Source: Patescibacteria group bacterium (GTDB taxonomy: Bacteria; Patescibacteriota; Microgenomatia; Curtissbacterales; GWA2-41-24). From it: a stretch of 64,000 nt of DNA. This document shows, piece by piece, positions 35-23,233 of the stretch. Position numbers and translations under genes: made by a program. Position 1 is the stretch's first letter, and every line of letters starts with the position of its first letter. The notes under the pieces are model-generated. The model saw only the letters and a program-made list of their open reading frames with translations. It had not been told where the DNA came from and searched no databases. The stretch spans positions 1,595 to 65,594 of the forward strand of contig JBBTUN010000012.1 of assembly GCA_038063735.1 (NCBI GenBank). The letters run 5' to 3'.

Positions 35-1378
35 TTGACCTGCCTACTTGCCTTAATTTTTTTAAGCAGCTTTATCACCAAACCCAAAAAAGCCACGGAA
101 TCGCCGGAAACCCCCACCAAGGAAGTTGCAACATATAACATCGGCAGTGCCCCCATGCTGCAACTCCACGCCCAGGTACAAAAATCGGGTGTCATCCAGA
201 TAGTTGCCCAAGCCCCAGGGATTGTTAGCAAAATCAATGTCACCGAAGGAAAAACCGTCAGCCGCGACACAAATCTCATCTCCCTTGGCGCAAACTACCA
301 AGGGGCCAGCGCCGCCTCCGTTCAAAGACAGCTTGCAAGCGTGCAATACCAAAACACCAAAAACACGTTCGATATTCAAAAAGACCTAATTGCCAAACAA
401 AGGGACTTGGCAGGCAAGCAAGATGAGTCGGCAGACCAGATTCGCGATATAACCTCAAAATCCACCGACGATACTCGAAACCTCATTTCATTAAACGAAA
501 ATATTCTCTCGACAATTGATGCCAATTTAAAAACGCTTGAGGACAACAATGCCGGCGGGGCAAACGACGCCCTAATCTTGCAAACAAAGCAACTAAAAAG
601 CCAGCTGCTTGCCGGAAACAACCAGGCAAAAAGCAGTCTTAGGCAGGCAGAGTTCACTCAGGACACCAGCAAAACCCCGGCCCAAATTTCGGATCTTTCC
701 CGGGACATTGCCCAAAAACAATTAGACCTGCAGGAAAAATCTCTTAAACTCGCACTCGACACAGCAGGTCTTCAGTTAAAACTTGCCCAAATCAACGAGT
801 CCACAATGTTCCCGACAAGCCCTTTTGCCGGTACAATTCAAAGAGTTCACGTAAAAATTGGTCAAACTGTTTCTCCGGGCACACCACTCGTTACCCTTGC
901 CGGTGCAACAAATAACTTAACAGCAGTTGCTCTGGTTCCACAAAACATTGCCAAGGGAATCACAAAGCTTCAAAGCAGCTACCTCTTAATCGGTGATGAC
1001 AAAATAGAAGAAAGCCCAACTTATATTTCAAAAGAAGCAACAAACGGTCAGCTTTATAGCGTGATTTTCAATATACCGCCCGAATACGCCACCAAATTAA
1101 CAGATGCCAGCTTCATTGATATCCGGGTTCCCATAGGATACGACTATGCAAGCGCTGCTGTCCCTTTTGTCCCGCTCGACGCACTCCATCAAACACAAGA
1201 CGAAGCAATCGTTTTTACAATTGAAGACAACAAAGCCCTGGGCAAAAAAGTTGCCTTAGGAGAAGTTCAGGGAAACTACGTAGAGGTGAAATCAGGTCTT
1301 TCGGAGAATGATGTTGTCATTGTAGACAGAAATGTTGTTGCCGGTGACAAGGTTAAAGCTAAATCCCCACAAATATAA
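35..1378 (+). CDS. RND efflux periplasmic adaptor (membrane fusion protein, HlyD/AcrA-like)
   Basis: N-terminal TM/signal segment and long coiled-coil middle. C-terminal beta-barrel motif 'VHVKIGQTVSPGTPLVTLA'. Stop lies 4 nt before the RND permease start. Begins with TTG and the frame is open to the window edge, so the true start is uncertain. Confidence 0.6.
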   Translation: MTCLLALIFLSSFITKPKKATESPETPTKEVATYNIGSAPMLQLHAQVQKSGVIQIVAQAPGIVSKINVTEGKTVSRDTNLISLGANYQGASAASVQRQLASVQYQNTKNTFDIQKDLIAKQRDLAGKQDESADQIRDITSKSTDDTRNLISLNENILSTIDANLKTLEDNNAGGANDALILQTKQLKSQLLAGNNQAKSSLRQAEFTQDTSKTPAQISDLSRDIAQKQLDLQEKSLKLALDTAGLQLKLAQINESTMFPTSPFAGTIQRVHVKIGQTVSPGTPLVTLAGATNNLTAVALVPQNIAKGITKLQSSYLLIGDDKIEESPTYISKEATNGQLYSVIFNIPPEYATKLTDASFIDIRVPIGYDYASAAVPFVPLDALHQTQDEAIVFTIEDNKALGKKVALGEVQGNYVEVKSGLSENDVVIVDRNVVAGDKVKAKSPQI

Positions 1379-1382
1379 ATAT

Positions 1383-4300
1383 ATGGAAGAAAAACGTTCA
1401 TATTTGGATCAGCTGCAATTTGATCCAAAATTAGCCCAAAGCGTAGTTGCAAAATATCTTACAAATTTTAGGTATGTTCTTCTACTAATAATTGCCATAA
1501 CAGTTGCGGGTGTTTTCAGTTTTTTAAATTTGCCAAGAAGACTAAATCCCCAGGTAAACATTCCAATCGTCTCTGTTACTACCCCTCTTCTTGGTGCATC
1601 CCCCGAAGACGTTGAATCATTAATCACCATTCCAATAGAAGACAAAATCGCCGGCCTTGAAGGCGTCAACACCATTGCGTCTACATCTCTTGATAATTTT
1701 TCGGCAGTTTCTGTCCAGTTTCAAAGCGGCACAAGTCCGGATAAAGCCAAAGACAATGTGCAATCGGCAGTTGACACAATTACAAATCTTCCCAACCAAG
1801 CAAAAACTCCAAACGTTCAAAAACTGGATTTCGAAAACCAGCCTGTTTGGACATTTCTCATAACTTCAAATCAGGACGAAGCAAGTCTTATGCGCTTCGG
1901 CGAAAACCTAAAAGATAGACTGGAAAGGTTATCCTCGGTAAAGCAGGTAAACATCGCAGGTTCAGAAGAAGAAGAAATTCAAGTCTTCGTTAAACCTAGT
2001 GTGCAAAAAGATTACAATATAGATCCCCAAACCATATCCCGTGCTATTCAGGCAAGTATCCACGCCCAACCTGCCGGCAACCTAAATACCGAAAATTCGT
2101 CTTTTGCCCTAACTATCGATCCAACCACAAAATCGCTTGACGAGCTTCGCGATATCAATATAAATGTGGGCACACAAATCGTAAAGCTAAGTGATGTCGC
2201 AACAATTTCCGTTAGATCCAAACCAAATCAACCAAGGGCCTACTACGCAACAAATGACGCATTACCGCAAAAAGCGATCACATTTTCAGTCTTCAAAACC
2301 GATTCCGCAAATATTGACAAGACAGTAAACGCTGTTAAAGCTGAAACTGGCAAAGCTCTTGGCGAAAACCCGAACAAATTCAATTTACTCACCATTATTA
2401 ACCTTTCGGATGAAGTCGACAAACAATTTTCCGATTTGCTCAGTAGCTTTCGGGATACAATTCTTTTGGTCATAGTCGTCCTTTTCCTGTTTTTAGGTAT
2501 CCGCCAGGCACTGATCGTCGCCTTCTGTATACCTCTTTCATTTTTAGTTTCATTTACTGTCATGCAAACAGTAGGTTTAACACTAAACTTTTTGTCGCTG
2601 TTTTCGCTAATTTTGGCACTAGGCCTGTTAGTCGACGATGCAATAGTCGTTGTAACTGCAACAACTGCCTATTGGAGAAGTCGAAAATTTACACCCAATG
2701 AAACCGGTTTACTTGTGCTTCGGGATTTTATAGTCCCCATTTGGTCAACAACTATAACGGCTGTCTGGGCTTTTTTACCGCTACTTGTAGCATCCGGAAT
2801 AATTGGAGAATTCATTAAATCAATCTCTATTGTTGTCTCCGCAACTCTTCTGGCATCAACCGCAATCGCAATACTAATTACGCTGCCCATGATGATGGTT
2901 TTCCTAAAACCCGACTTCCCAAACAGAGTAAAGCTTATGTTCTGGTTTTTATTGTTTCTAGTGCTCCTCGGTGTAGTTGTCACCCTTAGCCTGAAAAGCC
3001 CTCTTTTACCAATAAATATTGTCACGGCAATAGTGCTTGCCATTGTCGGCTTTAAACTCCGGCACCAGTTGTTGCAGGAAACAAACAACTGGCTAAGTAA
3101 AATATTTGATTCAAGAGCCCTAACAACAAGGGTCGCAAAAATTATGGACTCCGGGGTGATCGATTCAACTAAATTTGCAACTCGCTACCAAAATTTAATA
3201 GATAAGGTTCTATCATCAAGATCCTTTAGAAACAAAACTTTAATAATAGTTGTCGTTTTTGCTATCTTTTCTTATCTACTCCTACCACTGGGTTTTGTAA
3301 CTAACGAGTTTTTTCCAAAAACCGATCAGGGCACACTCTATGTTTCTGTGGAACTCCCTGCCGGCACCAATTTAGACACAGCCGAAAAAGAGGCCAAAAC
3401 CTTGGTTGAGGACCTCAGGAAAACAGAAGGCGTCAAATATGCAACCGCAGAAACGGGCCGCTCAATCTCAACCGAAGATTTCTTTGGACCCCAAAGCGCC
3501 ACTAATAACATTCTTTTTACCTTAGTATTGCCCGACAAAAAAGAGCGAAAAGTGAAATCAATCGAAATTGCCCAAGTGCTTCGCGATAAATACGAAAACA
3601 ATTATTACAGGGGCAAACTTTCCGTAATTGAACAATCCAGCGGCCCTCCCGCGGGAGCAGACTTGCAAATCAAGTTTTTAGGCGACGACCCCAAAGCCCT
3701 GAACGCCCAGGCAGACAAAGTCGTTTCCTATCTACGAAGCCGTCAAGCCATAAATAACATCCAAAAATCAATCAAAAGCGGTGGTGGAAAAATTGTTTTT
3801 GTTCCCGACAGAGTTAAGATTGCTCAAACCGGTATTACCGAATCGGAACTTGGTTCTCAACTAAGAACATATGCAAGCGGGTTTACGCTGGACTCCAATG
3901 CAAAAATAAGCGGCAAGGAAAAAGATATTGTTTTCCGGACAAATTCAAGCTTCCAGCAACCGGAGTCCCTTGGATCATTAAATATAAAAACGCAAACAGG
4001 TGATTTTCCACTATCCGCGCTGGGAACTCTCGAATTTAAACCAACTGCAACCCGCATTACCAGAGAAGATCAAAAACGCACACTTTCGGTAACAGCGGGT
4101 GTCGTAAACAGCAAACAGATCGCAGCAGAAAATAAAAACCTTCAGGATTTTGCAACAAAACTAAGCCTGCCGACCGGCTACGAATGGAAAATCGGTGGGG
4201 TAAACGAAGAGAATCAAAAGAGTGTCAATTCAATCTTCCAGGCCATGACAATCGCATTTATCTTGATAGCAGCCACAATGGTCATCCAATTCGGTTCGTA

Positions 4301-4709
4301 CAGAAAAGCCTTTATTATTCTTTTACTAATACCGCTTGCCATATCCGGAGTATTTATTGTTTTTGCGCTAACGGCAACACCACTTTCATTCCCAACCCTG
4401 ATCGGAATTCTTGCGCTTTTCGGAATTGTAGTTTACCAGTCGATGTTAATTGTAGATAAAATAGGCAGGAACCAAAGAGCAGGAATGTACCTAAAACATG
4501 CAATCTCCGACGCGGCTGCGTCCCGGGTCGAACCCATCATGTTTGGAACAATAACAACGGTTGTCGGCCTAATTCCAATCACCCTTTCCGACCCGCTTTG
4601 GCGCGGACTTGGTGGGGCAATTATTGCCGGGCTTCTTTTTTCCGGTGCCATCATGCTTCTTTTTATCCCCGTTGTTTACTACAAATTCTACGAAAAAGAG
4701 GTTGCATAG
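1383..4709 (+). CDS. RND (AcrB/HAE1-type) efflux transporter permease
   Basis: About 1100 aa with 12 predicted TM segments. N-terminus matches the AcrB periplasmic porter pattern ('VTTPLLGASPEDVESLITIPIEDKIAGLEGVNTIASTS'); 'LGLLVDDAIVV' TM motif. ATG at 1383 immediately follows the adaptor gene. Confidence 0.8.
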   Translation: MEEKRSYLDQLQFDPKLAQSVVAKYLTNFRYVLLLIIAITVAGVFSFLNLPRRLNPQVNIPIVSVTTPLLGASPEDVESLITIPIEDKIAGLEGVNTIASTSLDNFSAVSVQFQSGTSPDKAKDNVQSAVDTITNLPNQAKTPNVQKLDFENQPVWTFLITSNQDEASLMRFGENLKDRLERLSSVKQVNIAGSEEEEIQVFVKPSVQKDYNIDPQTISRAIQASIHAQPAGNLNTENSSFALTIDPTTKSLDELRDININVGTQIVKLSDVATISVRSKPNQPRAYYATNDALPQKAITFSVFKTDSANIDKTVNAVKAETGKALGENPNKFNLLTIINLSDEVDKQFSDLLSSFRDTILLVIVVLFLFLGIRQALIVAFCIPLSFLVSFTVMQTVGLTLNFLSLFSLILALGLLVDDAIVVVTATTAYWRSRKFTPNETGLLVLRDFIVPIWSTTITAVWAFLPLLVASGIIGEFIKSISIVVSATLLASTAIAILITLPMMMVFLKPDFPNRVKLMFWFLLFLVLLGVVVTLSLKSPLLPINIVTAIVLAIVGFKLRHQLLQETNNWLSKIFDSRALTTRVAKIMDSGVIDSTKFATRYQNLIDKVLSSRSFRNKTLIIVVVFAIFSYLLLPLGFVTNEFFPKTDQGTLYVSVELPAGTNLDTAEKEAKTLVEDLRKTEGVKYATAETGRSISTEDFFGPQSATNNILFTLVLPDKKERKVKSIEIAQVLRDKYENNYYRGKLSVIEQSSGPPAGADLQIKFLGDDPKALNAQADKVVSYLRSRQAINNIQKSIKSGGGKIVFVPDRVKIAQTGITESELGSQLRTYASGFTLDSNAKISGKEKDIVFRTNSSFQQPESLGSLNIKTQTGDFPLSALGTLEFKPTATRITREDQKRTLSVTAGVVNSKQIAAENKNLQDFATKLSLPTGYEWKIGGVNEENQKSVNSIFQAMTIAFILIAATMVIQFGSYRKAFIILLLIPLAISGVFIVFALTATPLSFPTLIGILALFGIVVYQSMLIVDKIGRNQRAGMYLKHAISDAAASRVEPIMFGTITTVVGLIPITLSDPLWRGLGGAIIAGLLFSGAIMLLFIPVVYYKFYEKEVA

Positions 4710-4734: not shown

Positions 4735-5103
4735 ATGAAAGCGTTTTCCATTCTGGCAAATTGGGTGCTTTCGGCGCTAACCATCTTTCTCATTTCCCAG
4801 TACATTCCCGGTTTCAAAATTGACTCATTGCAAACGGCATTTGTGGTAGCTTTAGTTCTAGGCATATTTAACGCGGTCATCAGGCCTGTGCTTCTTGTTC
4901 TCACCCTTCCCATAAATATTCTCACGCTTGGGCTTTTTACATTTGTTATCAATGCATTTTTAATTCTGGCAACAGACTATTTTGTGAAAGGCTTTACGGT
5001 CACAAGTTTCACCCCAGCCTTAATCGCAGCTATTGTGCTGTGGCTCATCAACATAATTGTAGGAAAAGCCTCATTTCCTATAAAAGCCGCTGCCAACAAC
5101 TAA
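4735..5103 (+). CDS. small integral membrane protein, YvlD/DUF360 (phage-holin-4-like) family
   Basis: Four hydrophobic helices. Internal ATG at 4735 (MKAFSILANW...) is the likely start rather than the ORF-track start at 4609. Confidence 0.4.
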   Translation: MKAFSILANWVLSALTIFLISQYIPGFKIDSLQTAFVVALVLGIFNAVIRPVLLVLTLPINILTLGLFTFVINAFLILATDYFVKGFTVTSFTPALIAAIVLWLINIIVGKASFPIKAAANN

Positions 5104-5196: not shown

Positions 5197-5739
5197 ATGA
5201 ACAGTCTTAAAATAATTATTCCCGCAGTAATTTTATTTATTCTAGCAACGGCCGGTGTGTACACTATCTACCAAACACAAACGGCAAACAAAAAAACTGT
5301 AGACGCTACGCCACAAATAAGCCCGCAATCTAATTTCCCTACCTCAAGCGCCTCACCAAAATTACAACCATCGCCAACAAGTGCGTCTCAAACAAATGTC
5401 CAAGCCCAACCTGCAACCGGCACAGACGAACTTGAAATCAAAAATGAAGGAATTCAATTGCAAAGCCCCACACGGGGAGAGCTCGTTAATTCTCCTCTTA
5501 CTGTTTCGGGCATTGCCAATGTAACTTCTCAAATCGTAGTGATAACCGTAAAAGACACGGCCGGTAATACACTTGGACAAGGCACTGCACAAGCTTGCGT
5601 TGGTCTGGACGCTTGTTATTTTGAAACCACCATCGCTTTCTCAGGGCCAAGAACTTCAATCGGTTACTTAGAAGTTTACTCCCCGTCAACCATTGATAAT
5701 TCTCCTACCTTTTTACAAACTATCCCCGTAAGTTTTTAA
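5197..5739 (+). CDS. secreted hypothetical protein (signal peptide, low-complexity linker, beta-rich C-terminal domain)
   Basis: N-terminal signal-anchor 'IIIPAVILFILATAGV', followed by a Ser/Pro/Gln-rich linker. No recognisable catalytic motif. Confidence 0.35.
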   Translation: MNSLKIIIPAVILFILATAGVYTIYQTQTANKKTVDATPQISPQSNFPTSSASPKLQPSPTSASQTNVQAQPATGTDELEIKNEGIQLQSPTRGELVNSPLTVSGIANVTSQIVVITVKDTAGNTLGQGTAQACVGLDACYFETTIAFSGPRTSIGYLEVYSPSTIDNSPTFLQTIPVSF

Positions 5740-5781: not shown

Positions 5782-7260
5782 ATGCAAAAGCAAAGTGACG
5801 GGGACATTAAAAAAACACCCACAGTGTTTGTAATATTTGGTGCAACCGGAGACCTCGCCCGCAAAAAAATATTCCCCTCTTTTTTTGAGCTCTTTAAAAA
5901 TGGTTTACTGCCAGAAAAATTTAAAATTATCGCAGCCGCACGTTCTCCTTTTACCACGGATCAATTTTTGCAAATTCTTGCCCAAACTGTCGATGCCAAG
6001 AGTGACACTTGGGATAAATTTACAAAAATCATTGAATATTTCCAATGCGACGTAGAGCGGGACGTCAATCTCAACAAGCTGGAAGACGAACTAAAAAAAG
6101 TTGAAAAAGAGTTCGGACAGTGCGCTCAAAGAGTATTCTACATGGCTATATCCCCTTACATTTACGAGGCTGCTTTTGATCTTTTGGGCAAACATAACCT
6201 CCACTTGAGCTGTGCGGAGCATAACACAAAAACCAGAATTGTTGTCGAAAAACCCTTTGGGCACGACTACGAGTCGTCTCAAATTTTAAATAAAAAGCTT
6301 TCTACTTACTTTGAAGAAAACCAGATTTTTAGGATTGACCATGTACTTGGCAAGGAGACCGTCCAGAATATCTTCGCCTTTCGCTTTGCAAACGAAATAT
6401 TCGAGCCCATCTGGAATAACAAATACATAGATAACATTCAAATCACTTATGCCGAATATGTCGGAGTAGATAGACGCGGTGAATACTACGATAGAGCTGG
6501 GGCGCTAAGGGACATTATTCAAAATCACTTACTTCAACTTTTGTGTATTGCCACAATGGAAGAACCAGATAAATTTGAACAGCTGGCAATAAGGACAAAG
6601 AAGCTGGAAGTTTTAAAAAGCATTAAAAAAATCACTCCCCAGGAAGTAGCAAACACAACCATTCGTGGCCAATACGAAGGATACTTGAGCGAAGAAAAAG
6701 TAGACCCCAAATCCACAACCGAGACTTATGCCATGGTTAAACTGGAGATTGAAAACAAAAGATGGCAAGGTGTACCAATATACCTAAGAACCGGCAAAAG
6801 ACTAACGGGTAAAGTTACGTCCATAATCTTCAGTTTCAAAGAAAACATTCACGAGCTCTATAAAGGAACACAAAAAACGCCCCTGCCTAATCACATCACC
6901 ATCCAAATCCAGCCAAACGAAGGTATAGGCATCAGAATCATTGCCAAAAAACCGGGACTAACAACCGAACTGGAACATGTCGATATGGAATTTTGCTATA
7001 GGCGTTCTTTTGACACTCCACAACCGGATGCTTACGAGCGTCTTTTAATGGATATAATTTCCGGCGACCAAACACTATTTTTAGGGCCTGTTGGAGAAAG
7101 CTGGAAAATAATAGACCCAATCCGCGAAGTTTGGAATAGCGGTAAACCAAAGTTAACCACATATAAACCCGGTTCTTGGGGTCCAAAAGAAGCCGAGGAT
7201 TTAATCAAAAAAGACGGCCGCCAGTGGCTCGCCCCGCTTCTTACCATCTGCAAAATCTAG
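5782..7260 (+). CDS. zwf: glucose-6-phosphate 1-dehydrogenase
   Basis: NADP-binding 'VIFGATGDLARKK' and the G6PD active-site motif 'RIDHVLGKE'. Length 492 aa. Confidence 0.9.
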   Translation: MQKQSDGDIKKTPTVFVIFGATGDLARKKIFPSFFELFKNGLLPEKFKIIAAARSPFTTDQFLQILAQTVDAKSDTWDKFTKIIEYFQCDVERDVNLNKLEDELKKVEKEFGQCAQRVFYMAISPYIYEAAFDLLGKHNLHLSCAEHNTKTRIVVEKPFGHDYESSQILNKKLSTYFEENQIFRIDHVLGKETVQNIFAFRFANEIFEPIWNNKYIDNIQITYAEYVGVDRRGEYYDRAGALRDIIQNHLLQLLCIATMEEPDKFEQLAIRTKKLEVLKSIKKITPQEVANTTIRGQYEGYLSEEKVDPKSTTETYAMVKLEIENKRWQGVPIYLRTGKRLTGKVTSIIFSFKENIHELYKGTQKTPLPNHITIQIQPNEGIGIRIIAKKPGLTTELEHVDMEFCYRRSFDTPQPDAYERLLMDIISGDQTLFLGPVGESWKIIDPIREVWNSGKPKLTTYKPGSWGPKEAEDLIKKDGRQWLAPLLTICKI

Positions 7261-7272
7261 GGTATTTACAGT

Positions 7273-8154
7273 CTACGAGCACCCTGGTATAGGGAATTGT
7301 GTAATTATCTTAAAGTAGAATTGATTAATAAGTGTTGCATCTGCTGCACTTACTACATTATTACCGTTAACGTCTGCTGCTTTAAAAGCATCCGTGCCAC
7401 GAACCAGTGGCGGAGTTACACCAAAGACAGTTTGTTTGACCAGAGTTGCATCATTCGCGTTTACAATATTATTATTGTTAACATCTCCATACTTTTTCAA
7501 CACACCCGCAGAATTGATAAAAGTGACACAAGAGATTGGGGGAGGTGTCGGAATTGGTGTTGGAGTCGGAACTGGGGTTGGCAAGGAACAGCCAGTCGTC
7601 GTAAAAGTCCCTGTTTGGGAATACCACCAAATATTATTGCTCCAACTAGGGTCTTTTGTTCTTATCCTCCAATAGTAGCTTGTGTTTGCTGGTAAATTGA
7701 CAATCGTTTTTGAATCATTTCGACCAAATGGAGCCGTGTTATAACTTCCTATGCGTACAGAAGAATACGAATCACCGGGTGTAAAATTATTATTGTTTAC
7801 CGAATAATCCAGCCAAACTTCCTCATCCCGCATGTCAATATTTTTCCAGCTTACAGTGGCATCTACATTACCATTATTGCAAACCATGGAAGGCACTCCA
7901 TCATTTGAAAGTGCCGCTCCGCCAGTTTCCCCAAAGGAATCTTCATCGCTCGAGTCACTGCTTGTGCAACTAATCCGGCATCTACCGCTGACATAATGCG
8001 TGCTGATAGCCATATTGTTAAAAATTACTTCCTCGCCAGATCTAAAAGCATACTTATTAAATACCTTCTTAACACAAGCAGCCCCTAACCCTTGACAGTC
8101 CCCATAACCAGGACTATTGCTAGAACTAGAACTAGGATAAACATAAAAAGTCAT
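7273..8154 (-). CDS. FN3-like plus dockerin-type-I-repeat protein
   Basis: Pro/Thr linker 'PTPVPTPTPIPTPPP'. C-terminal duplicated Ca-binding dockerin-like repeats ('GDVNNNNIVNANDATLVKQ', 'ADVNGNNVVSAADATLINQFYF'). No signal peptide of its own. Start overlaps the stop of the upstream ORF by ATGA. Confidence 0.5.
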   Translation of the reverse strand: MTFYVYPSSSSSNSPGYGDCQGLGAACVKKVFNKYAFRSGEEVIFNNMAISTHYVSGRCRISCTSSDSSDEDSFGETGGAALSNDGVPSMVCNNGNVDATVSWKNIDMRDEEVWLDYSVNNNNFTPGDSYSSVRIGSYNTAPFGRNDSKTIVNLPANTSYYWRIRTKDPSWSNNIWWYSQTGTFTTTGCSLPTPVPTPTPIPTPPPISCVTFINSAGVLKKYGDVNNNNIVNANDATLVKQTVFGVTPPLVRGTDAFKAADVNGNNVVSAADATLINQFYFKIITQFPIPGCS

Positions 8155-8570
8155 ACAAACTTCAGGTCAAAAGTCGCAGAACCATCACCGCCTGCCGTAG
8201 TTGTTCCGGTGACCGTAAAAGCCTGGTAAGCAGTATCATGATAACTGACTGAATACCCAACAGGTTCATTTGCGACAAAGGTTAAAAAGCCCATCGAACA
8301 TGAAAAATTATTGCTCACAGTACAAGTACCTTTTCTCCCTGACACACCGGTCGCATCAACGTCAAACGTCCAGTCACTCGGGAAATATGCTTTCAATGTT
8401 GTTCTTGGGGCAAAATTCGAAGGTAGCAGTGCTGCCTGCGGGGTTTTGCTAGGGCTCTGGGATATCACAACATAAACAACTGCCGCAATAGAAGCAAATA
8501 CAAACGCTAAAATCAAAAAAGCAAAGATAGCCCCAGAACCGGATTTAAATTTAAAGGCAGCTTTTTTCAT
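8151..8570 (-). CDS. membrane-anchored hypothetical protein (possibly the N-terminal part of the downstream dockerin protein)
   Basis: Begins 'MKKAAFKFKSGSGAIFAFLILAFVFASIAAVVYVV' (signal anchor). Stop overlaps the next gene's ATG. The frames differ, so this is either translational coupling or a frameshift. Confidence 0.4.
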   Translation of the reverse strand: MKKAAFKFKSGSGAIFAFLILAFVFASIAAVVYVVISQSPSKTPQAALLPSNFAPRTTLKAYFPSDWTFDVDATGVSGRKGTCTVSNNFSCSMGFLTFVANEPVGYSVSYHDTAYQAFTVTGTTTAGGDGSATFDLKFV

Positions 8571-8584
8571 TAAATCGTCATTTC

Positions 8585-9565
8585 CTACAACGCCACAGCC
8601 GGGCAAGCAGGAAACATTGCAATAGTCTTAAAGTAGAATTGCAAAATCAAGTCTGAATCTGCTGTGGTTATGGTTCCATTACCATCAACATCTGCCGCTT
8701 TCTTGGCATCTCCCAAAAGCGCCGGGTCTATGCCGGCGACGCTTCTTTTAACAAGGGTCGCATCACCTGCAGTTATATATTTATTATTGTTAACATCTCC
8801 ATACTTTTGCACTTTACCGGCCGAATTTGTAAAAGTGCAGGCGGTTGATGACGGCGTGGGTTTTGGAATAAAACTATTAACGTCTGGTCGTTCACTTACA
8901 GAAATCGTTACAGGTTCCGAACATTTCTGCAGAAAGTAACTGGCAACAATGTTTAAATCCTCTATCGCAATAGCGCCATTTGCGTCCATATCGTAACGTT
9001 TGTTATACTTTGCATCCCCTGTTTTAGTATTGTAAGAATTCGCAACCTTGGTCATATCCAAAATAGTCACTGCGCGGTCTCCATCAACATCCACGGGCCA
9101 GGCATTAACTCCACAAACTTTATTAGGACTCGTACCTATGTATCCCTCAACTTTATCCGAAAAACCGTCACGGTCGGTGTCTGAGTTTACAATCAGATCA
9201 CACTTTTGCCCAAAAAACCCGGAAGCTATATCCGTGTCCAGTTTCGATATCAAATCGTCGCCATTAAGGTCATACGCTTTGTTATAGTTAGCATCTCCCG
9301 CCTTCGTTCCATTTGCATTTGCCATTAATGTAATGTCAAGTATGGTTACTGCCCCGTCATGGTCAAAGTCTACCTGAGAACAAGAAACAGCGGTTAATTT
9401 TGGGGTTAGCGCGAACGGAGTCTTACCGGGATTATTAGCAATGACTGCCCAAACCGCAATGCCGACAACAGCAATAATCAAAATTGCCAAAAGCAGAAAT
9501 GAATTTTTGGGTTTAGATCTAATTCTAGCGGAACGCGAAACTTTTCTATTGGCAGCTTTTTTCAC
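8585..9565 (-). CDS. signal-anchored protein with multiple dockerin-like Ca-binding repeats
   Basis: N-terminal TM. Repeats 'DFDHDGAVTILDITLMANANGTK...DLNGDDLISKLD' and 'DVDGDRAVTILDMTKVANS...DMDANGAIAIEDLNIV'. C-terminal module 'GDVNNNKYITAGDATLVKR...ADVDGNGTITTADSDLILQFYF' is paralogous to 7273..8154. Confidence 0.5.
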   Translation of the reverse strand: MKKAANRKVSRSARIRSKPKNSFLLLAILIIAVVGIAVWAVIANNPGKTPFALTPKLTAVSCSQVDFDHDGAVTILDITLMANANGTKAGDANYNKAYDLNGDDLISKLDTDIASGFFGQKCDLIVNSDTDRDGFSDKVEGYIGTSPNKVCGVNAWPVDVDGDRAVTILDMTKVANSYNTKTGDAKYNKRYDMDANGAIAIEDLNIVASYFLQKCSEPVTISVSERPDVNSFIPKPTPSSTACTFTNSAGKVQKYGDVNNNKYITAGDATLVKRSVAGIDPALLGDAKKAADVDGNGTITTADSDLILQFYFKTIAMFPACPAVAL

Positions 9566-9630
9566 AGGTACAACTCAAGTATCGATCCACAAATGCCGCA
9601 TTGTCAAGCCCTTAAGAGTCAACGTGGAGA

Positions 9631-9969
9631 TTATTTATTGCAAACAACTGGGTCAGCAGAAGAAACGGCAGCTAAGTCTTTGGAATTTATCCAACCGTCG
9701 CGATCCAGGTCGAATTTAGAGTTATTTTTGGCCCCCTCTACTTTTCCAAAACCGCCAATAGCTATATCAAGGTCTCGGCTATCAACACGGCTATCCACAT
9801 TAAAATCGCACTTATTAACTACAACAGGCACTTGCGCACTTACCTGTCTGCCTTCCCTGCCGGCTTGAGATAGTAAAACTACCCCTGCAGAAAGCGGAAT
9901 TACCATAAAGGCACAAAGGGCCAAAAGAAGCCACGTGCCTTTTTGATATTTGTTAAACGCGTGTTCCAC
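9631..9969 (-). CDS. small secreted dockerin-like-repeat protein
   Basis: Signal peptide followed by one 'DFNVDSRVDSRDLDIAIGG...DLDRDGWINSKDLAAV' module. Confidence 0.4.
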   Translation of the reverse strand: MEHAFNKYQKGTWLLLALCAFMVIPLSAGVVLLSQAGREGRQVSAQVPVVVNKCDFNVDSRVDSRDLDIAIGGFGKVEGAKNNSKFDLDRDGWINSKDLAAVSSADPVVCNK

Positions 9970-9991: not shown

Positions 9992-10939
9992 TTATTTTTT
10001 CAAAATTTTCTTGACCTCGTGCCCGCCAAAGGCATTGCGAAGCGCCGCAACCATACGAGCGGCAAATGATTTTCGGATTTTCTCACTTGTTTCCGATTCG
10101 CGTCTAATCTCCAGCGACCTTTCTATTATCTCAATTGGCAGCCCTTTTTTCTTCGCCTCCTCAACCGCCCAAACGGTTTCACCGGAAGCCTTGCCAATTA
10201 CCCCTTCAATTTTACTCAAATTTGGGTCCTGGCCCAAAACCTCTATTGCCCGCTCCATCATAAAACCACTGACCAAAGACCCCTTGTCATACAAATTCGC
10301 AACTGCCAACAAATCCAAATTATAAGGTGATTTCTCAAGCACCCCGAAACCTTCTCCGATTGATTGCATATAACCGTATTCAATCGCATTATGGACCATC
10401 TTTACATAGTGCCCGGCACCGCCCTCACCAAAATATTCATATCCACCACTCGGTTTTGCCAAAGATTCCAGAATCGGTTTTATCTCGTGATAAGCAGATT
10501 TATCTCCACCTACCATCATTGGATAACCACTTTCACGGGCAATTAATCCTCCACTTACTCCTATTCCCAAAAACCGCACACCCTTTTTCTTAAAAGATTC
10601 GTGCCGTTTGTCTGTATCCGAAAACCTGGAATTTCCCCCGTCTACGGCGATATCTCCCGCTTCGACGTCGTCCTGAACTTGTTTCAGGATCTTTTCAGTC
10701 GCTTCCCCCGCCGGCAACATTGACCAAACAATTCGGGGTTTATCTAACTTTCCAACCAAATCATTAACTGACTCGGCCACAAACAACTTTGCTAACTGAT
10801 CTTTATCTAAAATCTGAGATCTAAAATCTATAATCTTTTCTTTAGTCCTATTCCAAACCACAACCTCATGACCTTCTTCCAGAAGTTTAGAAACCATCCG
10901 GTTACCCATCTTTCCTAAACCAATAAAACCTAATTTCAT
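9992..10939 (-). CDS. gnd: 6-phosphogluconate dehydrogenase (short, YqeC/Gnd-like form)
   Basis: 'MKLGFIGLGKMGNRMVSKLLEEGHEVVVWNRT' Rossmann N-terminus, about 315 aa. Sits with zwf and pgl. Confidence 0.8.
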   Translation of the reverse strand: MKLGFIGLGKMGNRMVSKLLEEGHEVVVWNRTKEKIIDFRSQILDKDQLAKLFVAESVNDLVGKLDKPRIVWSMLPAGEATEKILKQVQDDVEAGDIAVDGGNSRFSDTDKRHESFKKKGVRFLGIGVSGGLIARESGYPMMVGGDKSAYHEIKPILESLAKPSGGYEYFGEGGAGHYVKMVHNAIEYGYMQSIGEGFGVLEKSPYNLDLLAVANLYDKGSLVSGFMMERAIEVLGQDPNLSKIEGVIGKASGETVWAVEEAKKKGLPIEIIERSLEIRRESETSEKIRKSFAARMVAALRNAFGGHEVKKILKK

Positions 10940-10946
10940 AATTTAA

Positions 10947-11663
10947 TTAAAGCACAATATCAGTAATAACGAACGACTTTACAGGATCCTTTCTATAAAA
11001 AATTGCCGGATATTTTTGCATATCGTTTTCTCCCTCATCCAGCATTATTTTCAAAGCGTCTTTCTTTTCTTGTCCAAACATCATAACTACAAAGTTGGTA
11101 AATTCCCCAAGTGCTCTTATGGTTAAAGTTATCCTTTTTGGAAACTTGTCATCAACTTCTTCTCCAACTACCAAGTCTGCTGATTTCGCTGCAAGACTTC
11201 CGTGGAATACTCCAGCAGTATGAACGTTGCTGCCGACCCCCATTACCCCAACCCTTTTGGGAAACTTTTTAAATAGTTGACTGATTACATCGCCATAAAA
11301 CTTGGTCGTCTCGTCAAAACTTTTTCCGCAAAGAATTTTGCGACTTTCTATGCAATGTTTATCTGCAAATTCTTTTATTCCGGCATCCGCCAATAACTTT
11401 TCGTTGCTATCTTTGTGAAACGGCTCACCATAACGCTCATCCACAACACAAATTGCACCCGGAATAATATCGTCAGCTTGCCCCTCGAAGCCTTGGCGAA
11501 GTGGGGGGCTGACAATCATCTTCTTATAATCCATTGATGTCCCACCGGAAAGCGCCAGAAGTGTATTTTTATCTACAATTTTTTTGAGAATATCATGAGC
11601 TTTAATTTGCCCCGCATCCTTGTCTTTGACTTTTACATGTTCGATCATCTCTTGAGTTTCCAA
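10947..11663 (-). CDS. pgl: 6-phosphogluconolactonase (NagB/DevB family)
   Basis: 'LALSGGTS' motif, about 238 aa. Adjacent to gnd and near zwf, completing the oxidative pentose-phosphate branch. Confidence 0.7.
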   Translation of the reverse strand: METQEMIEHVKVKDKDAGQIKAHDILKKIVDKNTLLALSGGTSMDYKKMIVSPPLRQGFEGQADDIIPGAICVVDERYGEPFHKDSNEKLLADAGIKEFADKHCIESRKILCGKSFDETTKFYGDVISQLFKKFPKRVGVMGVGSNVHTAGVFHGSLAAKSADLVVGEEVDDKFPKRITLTIRALGEFTNFVVMMFGQEKKDALKIMLDEGENDMQKYPAIFYRKDPVKSFVITDIVL

Positions 11664-16028: not shown

Positions 16029-16586
16029 TTAAAAAGTTCCTTCCAAAACATGCTTCTCCGGCCTTTCATCCTCAGACGTAATCTCACGGGTAATCCAAAC
16101 GCTTTTTAGACTCGAATATTTATCCGAATCGCGAAATGTTAAACTCCAGGCTGTTTTTGCTCCTTCCATAAAACCCGCCTCCACCGTTTGCCCACCACCA
16201 ACCAGCCACACTTCGTACTTACTACCTTTGGGGTCTGGTAATGTAGCATCCACGGTTAGTGTATAACTACCGTTTCCAAAAACCCTGGTTGCAACAGCCG
16301 ACGCAGCTTCACCGCTCACATTCCTAAGCGTAGCAGTGTTACTCGTTAAATTTACGGCATTTTCTACCTCAACAGGAGTACCGTCAACTTTTACTGGGGT
16401 CAAACCCCGAGTAGCATCACGAAGAACAATACTGTCCCCACTCCCACCAATACCTGCAACGTTAGTCTTGGAAGCAATAAAGTACAAAACTCCCGCTATT
16501 AAAATAACAATAATAATTGTCCGAACTGCTTTTGGGGATGTCTGGCGTTTTCTTTTTAATAAGCTTTGGTTTGCCAAATCTCGCAT
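16029..16586 (-). CDS. hypothetical membrane-anchored protein
   Basis: Single N-terminal TM, Thr/Ser/Val-rich beta ectodomain. Confidence 0.3.
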   Translation of the reverse strand: MRDLANQSLLKRKRQTSPKAVRTIIIVILIAGVLYFIASKTNVAGIGGSGDSIVLRDATRGLTPVKVDGTPVEVENAVNLTSNTATLRNVSGEAASAVATRVFGNGSYTLTVDATLPDPKGSKYEVWLVGGGQTVEAGFMEGAKTAWSLTFRDSDKYSSLKSVWITREITSEDERPEKHVLEGTF

Positions 16587-16632
16587 GTTATTAAAGTTAA
16601 GCTTATCACAACTAAAAGTTACAGTTCAAAAC

Positions 16633-17067
16633 TTAAAAGGAAGACTGCCTTATACCTATTTTGGGTGTAAGTTGACGCCTTCGCTTTTTTGACCGCCTCA
16701 CCCGCCCATTATCCAAAATTATAGAGTAAACTACGGGAACGAGTAGAACCACAGGGTACAAAAGCCAATTTCGGGAATCGGAAAAATAAAAAACAAGGTC
16801 AAAATAATAAAACTTGGCAACCTCAAAAAAGTTGATTAAAATTAGCACAAAAAACCAGGCAATGGACACTCCAATTCCAACCGCCAACAAATTTTCCCCA
16901 GGCACATTTTTGTTATCAAGATAATATACAGTCGCAAGTAGTACAACCAGAGGAAGTATTATATAAAACCACGGCAGCAAAACTACCCCGCTGACCAGAA
17001 AGGTCAGAATCCATATTAAAGCGCAGTACCACAAAATCCGCCAGCTCGGTTTTAAGTATCTTCCCAT
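16633..17067 (-). CDS. hypothetical integral membrane protein
   Basis: Three to four hydrophobic helices. Confidence 0.3.
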   Translation of the reverse strand: MGRYLKPSWRILWYCALIWILTFLVSGVVLLPWFYIILPLVVLLATVYYLDNKNVPGENLLAVGIGVSIAWFFVLILINFFEVAKFYYFDLVFYFSDSRNWLLYPVVLLVPVVYSIILDNGRVRRSKKRRRQLTPKIGIRQSSF

Positions 17068-17188
17068 TCAATTAAAACGCGTCTTTAGGGGGTTAAATTT
17101 GTTTCCCGCATCAAATCTACGACTTTTAATTTCTTGCGTCAAGAGGGGCAAAGTGGTGCTTATTTAGTGATTAATATCCAAAAAGGGG

Positions 17189-17512
17189 TTACTGGGAGTC
17201 GACCGCTTGATTAACTCCTAAAACGTCACTATCAATTGTATCTAAATTCGTCCCCGATAAATCTTTCTCAATAGAGCCGATGTCATCCTCGGGTTCCAAT
17301 TTATTTATTTGTTGCGTTTGGTCACCATTCACGTCAACTTTATGATCTGGAATTGATACGGGGTTATATCCACCCAAAAAACCATATTTATACAAAACAA
17401 CGCCCAAGATACCAACAACTACCAAAAACATTACAACCAAAACTAAAACCGACCCTCTGCGATTAGTCATTCCCCGCCTCCCCCGCACTTTTTGATCCCT
17501 CGCGCAATGCAC
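17189..17512 (-). CDS. hypothetical small membrane protein
   Basis: One TM ('VLVLVVMFLVVVGILGVVLY'). Confidence 0.25.
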   Translation of the reverse strand: MHCARDQKVRGRRGMTNRRGSVLVLVVMFLVVVGILGVVLYKYGFLGGYNPVSIPDHKVDVNGDQTQQINKLEPEDDIGSIEKDLSGTNLDTIDSDVLGVNQAVDSQ

Positions 17513-18038
17513 TTGCCGCTTTTAATTCTCTGAGCGTCTCAACAAGCCCCTTATGGTACGCAAACAGCGCATTCTTAGCGTCTTTAATTGAAGCAAGAGC
17601 CGTGTCAAGCGTGGTTCTGTCAACAACGGCCAAAGTATCACTAGCCGCTTTGTCTATAGCTCCCTTGGCCTTAACCTGTAACAATTTCGCTTCTGCTAAT
17701 TTCGCTTCAGCTTTAGATGTATTTACACCTTTTTCGCCAAGCTTTTTTATTCTGCTTTCAATTTTGCCCGAAATTTTATCCAGTCGCAAAAGATAAGCAT
17801 TCAAATTCCTGTCTATTGTGGAAAGCCTTTTGGTAACATTTTTTTTGATCTTGTCTTTTAACTCAGCCCTTCTGGATGCCTCTTTTTCGCGAATTTCAGC
17901 CTTTACTTCAACCTTCTTGTCACGCAAAGGAACATTTGTGGAATTAAAACTGCCCACTGTTGCCGAAACCCCAGAACTAAAAATAATTAGGGCAAGCGCG
18001 AAAACCAACACGAAAACTGGGAATTTCCTCACAACCAC
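17463..18038 (-). CDS. secreted coiled-coil hypothetical protein
   Basis: Signal peptide followed by a long K/E/A-rich helical region. Confidence 0.3.
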   Translation of the reverse strand: MVVRKFPVFVLVFALALIIFSSGVSATVGSFNSTNVPLRDKKVEVKAEIREKEASRRAELKDKIKKNVTKRLSTIDRNLNAYLLRLDKISGKIESRIKKLGEKGVNTSKAEAKLAEAKLLQVKAKGAIDKAASDTLAVVDRTTLDTALASIKDAKNALFAYHKGLVETLRELKAASALREGSKSAGEAGND

Positions 18039-18069
18039 ATGTTATCAAGTAATAATTAATGCAGTCAAG

Positions 18070-18483
18070 TTACCGTGGAGAAACAGATAGTGTAATAGCG
18101 GTTTTCTTACCATCTGCAGCAGTATTAATAGTAACTGTTCCGGCCTGCTTATTATTTTTAATATCATAAGAATAATTTGTTTCAGAGTTTTGCACAAATT
18201 TAAATTCCCACCCAAGCGACCCCAGCGAATTGTTATAAAACTCGACAACCTTGGCAATGTTGTCATCTGTTATGGCAGATGCACCATATGAACTATCAGA
18301 GCCATAACTTTCTACTATTTTTGCCTTAGGATACAGGGGTAGAGCCGGAAAATTTTTACCCGCTCTCCCTTTTAGAAAAAGTCCGGGCTTGGATTGGTCC
18401 CCGCTACTAGCACCACCCAAATTTGGTAAACAAGCCGACAAAAAAACAGACAAAAAAATAACTATAAATATTTGCGCTCTCAC
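18070..18483 (-). CDS. putative lipoprotein
   Basis: 'IVIFLSVFLSAC' lipobox-like signal. Confidence 0.4.
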   Translation of the reverse strand: MRAQIFIVIFLSVFLSACLPNLGGASSGDQSKPGLFLKGRAGKNFPALPLYPKAKIVESYGSDSSYGASAITDDNIAKVVEFYNNSLGSLGWEFKFVQNSETNYSYDIKNNKQAGTVTINTAADGKKTAITLSVSPR

Positions 18484-22725: not shown

Positions 22726-22992
22726 TCAATAAGTAGTAGAAGTTCTTCTGATTATAGATGTAATTGTCACCAATTTAAGTTCAACAAAATAGAAAATTCT
22801 AAAACTCCCAACACGCAACCTGTAACCCTCAGTTAATTTCTTAATATGTTTCCCGTCTGCAATATGTGGAGATACCGACAATAAATCTTCAATATTTTTT
22901 AGGATCTTACTCTGAACGCCCGATGGAACTTCTCGCAGTTGTTTTAGAGCAGTTTTCTTAAAAACTACCTTAAACTTTTCCGCTTTTAACAT
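22726..22992 (-). CDS. type II toxin, RelE/ParE family
   Basis: 88 aa, basic. Overlaps and lies downstream of an antitoxin-like gene. RelE-like 'GYRLRVGSFRIFY'. Confidence 0.55.
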   Translation of the reverse strand: MLKAEKFKVVFKKTALKQLREVPSGVQSKILKNIEDLLSVSPHIADGKHIKKLTEGYRLRVGSFRIFYFVELKLVTITSIIRRTSTTY

Positions 22993-23233
22993 CGTCTAAA
23001 GAATAAACTTTTTCACTTTTTGTGGCTTTTTTGGATCTGGACATCTCCAACTCTTCCCATAAGGATTCGTTTTCGTCAATCATAGATTGAAAATAGCCAG
23101 GAGAAACTATAACAGAAAGCTGATCGCTATTGCGGGTAACTACAACCACTTCGTCTTTCGCCTTTACAGTATCAAAAATCTGCTTTGCATTTTTACGGAT
23201 ATCACTAACGCTTTTAATATTAACAGTTTGCAT
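22970..23233 (-). CDS. type II antitoxin, Phd/YefM family
   Basis: 87 aa. 'NIKSVSDIRKNAKQIFDTVKAKDEVVVVTRN' is a typical YefM N-terminus. 23-nt overlap with the toxin gene. Confidence 0.55.
   Translation of the reverse strand: MQTVNIKSVSDIRKNAKQIFDTVKAKDEVVVVTRNSDQLSVIVSPGYFQSMIDENESLWEELEMSRSKKATKSEKVYSLDDVKSGKV

Follow-up and report, generated by a model that had tools for sequence, protein, structure and literature searches.

A strain-variable cluster of dockerin proteins with putative surface anchors between convergent pentose-phosphate genes of a groundwater Patescibacterium

The 64-kb stretch of contig JBBTUN010000012.1 analysed here (the window) belongs to a Patescibacterium and contains a cluster of four open reading frames (ORFs) between the pentose-phosphate genes gnd and zwf. 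All four ORFs announced by an earlier sequence-only reading of this DNA are present on the minus strand, where they follow cysS, pgl and gnd in the same direction. The same reading held that the cluster interrupts a zwf/gnd/pgl unit. However, zwf lies on the plus strand and is convergent with the cluster, and therefore nothing inside an operon is interrupted: the ORFs occupy the 3'-3' gap between two convergent units, with the stop codons of zwf and ORF1 only 12 nt apart. The cluster probably represents a strain-variable island of dockerin surface proteins with a role in docking. The genes at the locus are as follows.

5782-7260, plus strand: zwf (precomputed Pfam G6PD_N and G6PD_C), convergent with the cluster.
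7273-9969, minus strand: the cluster of four ORFs, 2,697 nt.
8154-7273, minus strand: ORF1, 293 aa; ATGA overlap with ORF2 at 8154-8151.
8570-8151, minus strand: ORF2, 139 aa from a homologue-supported ATG; 14-nt gap after ORF3.
9565-8585, minus strand: ORF3, 326 aa; 65-nt gap after ORF4.
9969-9631, minus strand: ORF4, 112 aa, GTG start; 22 nt past gnd.
9992-10939, minus strand: gnd (precomputed Pfam 6PGD/NAD_binding_2), co-directional with the cluster.
10947-11663, minus strand: pgl (precomputed Pfam Glucosamine_iso), co-directional with the cluster.
13027-11645, minus strand: cysS, co-directional with pgl, gnd and the cluster, with tight spacing.

Dockerin repeats had been attributed to all four ORFs. 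This holds for three of them, with Dockerin_1 (PF00404) scores of 39.4 bits in ORF1, 72.3 bits over three stretches in ORF3 and 27.3 bits in ORF4, all above the Pfam gathering score of 22.9 bits, and fails for ORF2, which has no Pfam match and hence no dockerin. In the same scan of the cluster ORFs, EF-hand models remained far under their cut-offs. In total, five modules are present (one in ORF1, three in ORF3 and one in ORF4), and a hidden Markov model (HMM) built from them recovered no further module from the window translated in six frames, its next match having E=1. The Ca-loop pattern D-x-[DN]-x-[DNS]-x-x-[IVLA]-x-x-x-[DE] has 11 matches among the 75,381 residues of translated sequence, and 10 of these lie within the cluster, in pairs with 32-37 residues between partners, a concentration far above chance. 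All ten loops display D1, D/N3, D/N5, a hydrophobic residue at position 8 and D12, and among 17 modules of the family neither D1 nor D12 varies in either loop.

Searches of PDB sequences with phmmer returned exclusively dockerins for ORF1 and ORF3. The C-type modules are closest to enzyme-borne type I dockerins (1OHZ/2CCL, 4FL4, 8X39), and the best matches of module B of ORF3 are scaffoldin-borne dockerins (4WI0_B, 2B59_B, 3KCP_A). The only confident part of the AlphaFold2 model of ORF3 is dockerin C (aa 240-323, predicted local distance difference test (pLDDT) 81-94). Its top 21 Foldseek matches in the PDB are all dockerins, and its fit to the type I dockerins 4UYQ_B, 2CCL_B and 4FL4_A reaches template modelling (TM) scores, normalized by the target, of 0.8-0.88 at root-mean-square deviations of 1.1-1.8 A. 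The three-helix dockerin fold is supported for module C of ORF3 only, modules A and B having pLDDT <50. With Dockerin_1 above and EF-hand models below their cut-offs, and with PDB matches that are all dockerins, an assignment to unrelated EF-hand or RTX repeats can be dismissed, as the sequence-only reading had expected. Judged by sequence profiles and the predicted fold, the repeats are true dockerin modules, which would be expected to fold around two Ca2+ after export.

The modules of ORF4 and ORF3 are arranged behind predicted membrane anchors.

9865-9933, minus strand: ORF4 anchor (aa 13-35), from hydropathy.
9634-9810, minus strand: ORF4 dockerin, single and Cys-bracketed (aa 54-112).
9422-9565, minus strand: ORF3 leader and anchor (aa 1-48), conserved and Lys/Arg-rich.
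9200-9382, minus strand: ORF3 dockerin A (aa 62-122), 'CSQVDFDHDG...FFGQKC', with the dockerin 2Y3N_B as PDB match.
9119-9181, minus strand: ORF3 thrombospondin-type-3 (TSP3)-like Ca-binding repeat (aa 129-149), TSP3_bac 17.1 bits against a gathering score of 25.
8921-9115, minus strand: ORF3 dockerin B (aa 151-215), 'CGVNAWPVDVDGD...YFLQKC'.
8603-8839, minus strand: ORF3 dockerin C, type-I-like (aa 243-321), 'CTFTNSAGKVQKYGDVNNN...QFYFKTIAMFPAC', containing the 'tail' noted earlier.

ORF4 is retained in the two closest syntenic relatives (contigs L010 and L011), and its long start is supported because the 109-aa orthologues keep the full anchor. ORF3 consists of a leader/anchor and three dockerins of three different subtypes, scoring 94-113 bits each with the HMM of the five modules, and has no catalytic domain. 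The bacterial thrombospondin-type-3-like repeat, precomputed as PF18884 in the close ORF3 homologues P0008 and P0009 (83-88% identity), always stands directly ahead of a subtype-B dockerin in homologues. By its domain order, ORF3 looks like a putative adaptor or hub.

A C-terminal tail common to two ORFs, which had been proposed as a sorting signal, is indeed present. Its sequence '...LINQFYFKIITQFPI' aligns residue for residue with '...LIEKYITGRITHLPV', the end of the 8X39 dockerin. In dockerins, residues just ahead of the first loop form an intramolecular clasp with C-terminal residues such as 'FPV' (Slutzki et al., PMC3821032). Thus, the tail corresponds to the last dockerin helix and the clasp region. 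A sorting signal of the LPXTG, PEP-CTERM or type IX secretion system C-terminal domain type is ruled out, as neither a Pfam/NCBIfam match to a sorting domain nor a C-terminal hydrophobic segment was found. The 5 window modules and about 30 homologue modules are each flanked by two Cys, the first ahead of loop 1 and the second beyond the last helix. This Cys bracket spans at least three dockerin subtypes, and the apparent exceptions in the family are only mis-paired TSP3 repeats; 65 of 80 generic dockerins retrieved with the module profile are without both Cys, and 8 have just one. The presence of the bracket in every true module, together with the known clasping of dockerin termini (PMC3821032), points to a disulfide version of the clasp that may form between the bracketing Cys.

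N-terminal hydrophobic anchors are predicted for ORF4, ORF3 and ORF2 (19-residue Kyte-Doolittle windows of 2.6-3.2). Two related leader types, 'MKKAAKRKVSRS...AVWAVIANNPGKTP' and 'MKKAAFKFKSGSG...VVYVVISQSPSKTP', occur on unrelated passengers in many homologues and follow one plan: 'MKKAA', a K/R-rich stretch, about 22 hydrophobic residues and '(S/N)P(G/S)KTP'. Within the window, these leaders are found only on ORF3 (9422-9565) and ORF2 (8427-8570), both on the minus strand, and that of ORF2 is common to P0002, P0003, P0005 and P0020. Conservation beyond the need of a generic signal anchor suggests a dedicated targeting or processing step.

The remaining two ORFs share one domain, designated domain A.

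8427-8570, minus strand: ORF2 leader and anchor (aa 1-48), conserved.
8154-8399, minus strand: N-terminal half of the Cys-rich domain A in ORF2 (aa 58-139).
8152-8166, minus strand: frameshift window of about 15 nt, reading CCTGAAGTTTGTATG.
7897-8154, minus strand: C-terminal half of domain A in ORF1 (aa 1-86).
7588-7896, minus strand: beta-rich FN3/Ig-like module of ORF1 (aa 87-189), with a sub-threshold profile score.
7531-7587, minus strand: Pro/Thr linker of ORF1 (aa 190-208), as announced by the sequence-only reading.
7279-7530, minus strand: ORF1 dockerin C' (aa 209-292).

The reported ATGA overlap is present at 8154-8151, and the suspicion that both ORFs are one frameshifted gene is borne out by an uninterrupted syntenic orthologue, P0002, and by the position of the split inside a conserved domain. 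The missing signal peptide had been assigned to the wrong partner: 7273-8154 is without one, and 8151-8570 has an anchor. The joined ORF2 and ORF1 match P0002 (492 aa, single ORF) with 55% identity over 80% of the query, and the junction between ...DLKFV and MTFYVYP... aligns gaplessly to ...RWSLDYTIRAWP... of P0002. Domain A comprises about 144 residues with six invariant Cys, and the junction falls mid-domain, between the first Cys pair and the second and third Cys pairs. The domain is uninterrupted in five homologues (P0002, P0010, P0012, P0015 and P0023). Among 1.84 billion cluster representatives, its 144-position profile retrieved 43 proteins, nearly all in one stretch covering most of the profile; only in this genome is it split over two ORFs (ORF2, P0130, positions 2-78; ORF1, P0001, positions 80-141). 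In two of six family members, the FN3-like module scores 17.2-20.4 bits with Pur_ac_phosph_N, short of the cut-off of 30. A profile of this module found nothing below E=0.6 among PDB sequences, and the AlphaFold2 model of the fused ORF2 and ORF1, based on six sequences, had a pLDDT of 46.9 and was unusable for fold search.

The position of the shift follows from the frame limits. A TGA at 8169-8167 limits the ORF1 frame upstream, and ORF2 terminates with TGA at 8153-8151 (the ORF1 ATG lies at 8154-8152); the shift is therefore confined to 8166-8152. A -1 shift through the loss of a single nucleotide explains it best. Frameshifts of a single base often arise as artefacts, and yet a sequencing or assembly error is next to inconceivable here: a 51-nt junction core is exact in nine loci of seven separate assemblies (ERZ1292619, ERZ1292625, ERR3858120, ERR3858121, SRR32696708, SRR32696710 and SRR32696712), and the site has no long homopolymer, with T runs of only 3 and 5 nt. 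In five of the seven assemblies, all 2,697 nt of the cluster are matched at 100%, and in two this holds for the parts covered. Since the junction is identical in all seven, the break is real and fixed in this population. This fixation, the perfect ATGA overlap and an ORF1 that has no further stops and an intact dockerin would also suit a functional two-gene unit, maintained by translational coupling or programmed -1 frameshifting. Such a unit is rather improbable, as the break lies in the middle of a six-Cys domain, ORF1 carries no export signal, the +1 frame stops after six codons, and no X-XXY-YYZ slippery heptamer, the hallmark of programmed -1 frameshifting, occurs in 8152-8166. The best 19-residue Kyte-Doolittle window of ORF1 is 1.03, as compared with 2.6-3.2 in the other three ORFs, so that its dockerin would not be exportable unless the pieces were joined. 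ORF2/ORF1 is therefore most likely a recent pseudogene.

Comparison of four related contigs (L010, L011, L094 and L095) establishes that the flanks are retained and that the genes in between differ; gnd and zwf are both kept in L010, L011 and L095. L010 shows the order pgl, gnd, a 109-aa ORF4-like gene, a 292-aa ORF3-like gene encoding domain A and one dockerin, P0002 (3039-4517), and convergent zwf. The gap in L011 contains only the ORF4-like gene and a gene for a 269-aa protein without a dockerin. In L095, it encodes a 308-aa anchored protein, P0023 (10001-11377) and a 198-aa protein, and no dockerin at all. The 1.08-Mb length of L095, together with NCBI protein names that refer to Patescibacteria, agrees with the small-genome bacterium that the sequence-only reading had assumed. 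P0002 ends in a flexitail (NF041520) in place of a dockerin, and P0023 is composed of leader, domain A, Ig-like module and flexitail. The flexitails score 73.5 bits (P0002) and 67.3 bits (P0023), with a cut-off of 40. Ahead of the C-terminal module, these two flexitail putative surface proteins follow the same plan of leader, domain A and beta-module as the frameshifted gene of the window. In the window proteins, the flexitail model is matched just weakly and in part (ORF3 aa 129-195, 18.5 bits). To judge by these architectures, flexitail and dockerin are interchangeable as C-terminal modules in this family.

The exact cluster proteins are present in metagenomes of the Hainich aquifer (Hain_H41, 0.1-um fraction). 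The window matches assemblies from well H41, and L094 stems from well H51 of the same aquifer. Positions 1-1302 of L094 were compared with window positions 7252-8798. Identity is 96% over window 8798-8427, which takes in the end of ORF3 and codons 1-48 of ORF2, and 98% over 7563-7252, from the Pro/Thr linker through the dockerin to the spacer downstream of it. Between these two stretches, L094 has 618 nt with no relation to the 863 nt of the window. The H51 allele encodes an intact protein of 350 aa, and that of H41 carries the frameshift. Two strains from one aquifer differ by a clean exchange of the passenger segment, with leader and dockerin conserved on either side.

In homologues, these dockerin subtypes occur in fusion with Peptidase_M10 (P0004, P0018), DUF4185 (P0014, P0017), PA14 (P0019) and CBM60 (P0011, P0013). 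Domain A is accompanied by Dockerin_1 in six of ten tested relatives and is also found with Peptidase_M23, Peptidase_S8 and DUF4185. These fusions indicate that the dockerins tag exported binding modules and hydrolases, mostly peptidases and not cellulases. A search of metagenomes with the module profile retrieved only short dockerin proteins (98 of <=150 aa) that carry no other domain, none with a Cohesin match. Cohesin was equally absent from the neighbours' precomputed Pfam annotation, from the 20 uncharacterised window ORFs scanned directly and from the flanks of the relatives' dockerin genes. A cohesin HMM built from 1ANU, 1AOH and 3KCP was run on the six-frame window, 16 related loci and 160 fetched proteins. 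Its best match, 10.1 bits over 30 residues, is noise; it lies in a 137-aa putative lipoprotein at 18070-18483 that has a lipobox-like 'LSAC'. Domain A and the FN3-like module were rejected as cohesins (hhalign probability 0.1%).

A cellulosome-like system, in which the dockerins would plug into the cohesins of a scaffoldin encoded elsewhere and build an extracellular enzyme complex on the surface, could draw on the type-I-like nature of the modules, on the hydrolases that bear homologous dockerins and on the three divergent subtypes within one protein, which recall the hierarchical type I/II/III specificities. The 64 kb contain neither a scaffoldin with cohesin repeats nor a glycoside hydrolase, dockerin-bearing or otherwise. 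The cohesin searches of the window, the neighbours and the relatives' loci were negative, and the dockerin carriers bear a putative membrane anchor, the reverse of the classical topology if the leader is uncleaved. Such a system is unlikely. The missing cohesin, the stand-alone small dockerin proteins of metagenomes and the flexitail that can take the position of the dockerin would fit modules that have no dedicated protein receptor and serve Ca2+-dependent folding and stability or bind wall or glycan. However, ORF3 and ORF4 consist of an anchor and three dockerins or one, with no other domain to stabilise, and every solved dockerin among the matches was crystallised with, or described as binding, cohesin; a role without a receptor is about as doubtful as a cellulosome.

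A docking or adhesion function of the island appears the more plausible proposal. The proteins begin with a lineage-specific Lys/Arg-rich leader and a hydrophobic segment of about 22 residues and end in Ca2+-binding dockerins, with ORF4 as the minimal form of an anchor and one dockerin. The fourth gene (leader, domain A, beta-sandwich module, Pro/Thr linker and dockerin) was most likely inactivated by the loss of one nucleotide inside domain A. Once exported, the dockerins would fold around two Ca2+, probably disulfide-locked by the bracketing Cys, and could act as docking plugs by which the proteins are tethered to a partner, either in the envelope of the same cell or on a different cell. In relatives, such plugs are found on peptidases (M10, S8 and M23) and on a DUF4185 enzyme, and the variable passenger segments may alter what is displayed. 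A bolder version is improbable: docking would be cohesin-independent and disulfide-clasped, the family-specific leader would direct the proteins to the surface, the swappable passengers and three dockerin specificities (on M23, S8 and M10 peptidases in relatives) would form a modular complex for host attachment or attack, with which the bacterium would bind and exploit a host cell, and cassette swaps between strains would tune the host range.

Several points weigh against the proposed docking island. No cohesin or other partner was detected by Pfam or the local cohesin HMM in the window or the fetched relatives' loci. Dockerins A and B, and everything else outside dockerin C, are modelled at low confidence. 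The leader may stay on the protein as a signal anchor or represent a long signal peptide of the Gram-positive type, and the surface location, Ca2+ binding and disulfide of these proteins are predictions from sequence. In addition, ORF1 is still open over 293 codons with an intact dockerin and may retain some function through ATGA re-initiation.

Like the cellulosomal type I dockerins (PF00404; Clostridium thermocellum Xyn10B, 1OHZ/2CCL, and A. cellulolyticus ScaB, 4UYQ), the modules have two tandem 12-residue Ca-loops, each with a helix, in about 60-70 residues, a predicted three-helix fold (TM 0.8-0.88), a Tyr before a conserved Gly and a '..FP..' clasp region. Unlike them, they occur in a Patescibacterium of oligotrophic groundwater, with no cohesin or glycoside hydrolase nearby, on carriers with N-terminal hydrophobic anchors, and each has around it a Cys pair that most generic dockerins lack. 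Clostridia are known to have proteins with several dockerins, some lacking a catalytic partner and some combined with a protease (PMC12484212, section 3.2). One of them, the C. thermocellum double dockerin Clo1313_0689 (8X39), is the best PDB match of both C-type modules and likewise has several dockerins per polypeptide, whereas ORF3 combines three divergent subtypes, with linkers and a TSP3-like repeat in between, behind a putative membrane anchor. In the Saccharibacterium Southlakia epibionticum, the envelope protein SEML1_0315 has a dockerin domain and is essential (Wang et al. 2023, PMC10633639), and the authors speculated that it serves adhesion to, or degradation of, host surface glycans (PMC10633639). 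By description rather than by sequence, it resembles the present proteins as an envelope-associated dockerin protein of a Patescibacterium, but it is essential, whereas the proteins here belong to a variable, partly decayed locus of another lineage.

The GC content of the cluster (0.42-0.44) is the same as that of its surroundings, so base composition reveals no mark of foreign origin relative to the flanks, and promoter- and terminator-like sites around it occur at the frequency of shuffled sequence. A gnd search of 185,579 GTDB species genomes found no close relative and gave no help in dating an 'insertion'. Its best match (62% identity) lies on a 6-kb contig labelled Gammaproteobacteria, with zwf and gnd in the same direction and no dockerin genes, followed by Chloroflexota (~45%) ahead of Saccharibacteria (~39%). 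The oxidative pentose-phosphate genes (gnd, with zwf) may have been laterally acquired.

On the zwf side, a Phage_holin_4_2 family membrane protein (~4735-5103) and a signal-anchored Gmad2 Ig-like protein (5197-5739, plus strand, 52 bits) keep the same position in the 1.08-Mb relative L095. At 35-4709 (plus strand), an HlyD/CusB-like membrane-fusion protein of 447 aa stands beside a 1,125-aa RND transporter (ACR_tran), a tripartite-type efflux pair unexpected for a Patescibacterium. Downstream of dnaX, five small exported or anchored proteins with no assigned function are encoded at 16029-18483 (minus strand), a run also kept in L095. They include the putative lipoprotein at 18070-18483, and one of them scores 29.3 bits for RskA_C (anti-sigma), just under the cut-off of 29.4. 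A PhdYeFM antitoxin/ParE toxin pair is found at 22726-23233 (minus strand), and tRNA-Thr(TGT) at 61414-61488 (plus strand) is the sole RNA gene detected in the window.

In kind, the cluster is ordinary: non-cellulosomal dockerins are widespread, and NCBI already annotates its proteins as 'MAG: dockerin type I domain-containing protein [Patescibacteria group bacterium]'. What deserves to be retained is the swap of cassettes, a Cys bracket common to all true modules of the family, an anchored protein with three dockerins and the lack of any cohesin nearby. Little is known of the ways in which ultra-small Patescibacteria attach to and feed on other cells, and surface proteins are obvious candidates. 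The locus offers five small Ca-binding modules of three subtypes and a natural allele pair with swapped passengers from two wells. If a partner is found, it would show whether dockerin-based assembly works outside cellulose degradation in this phylum.

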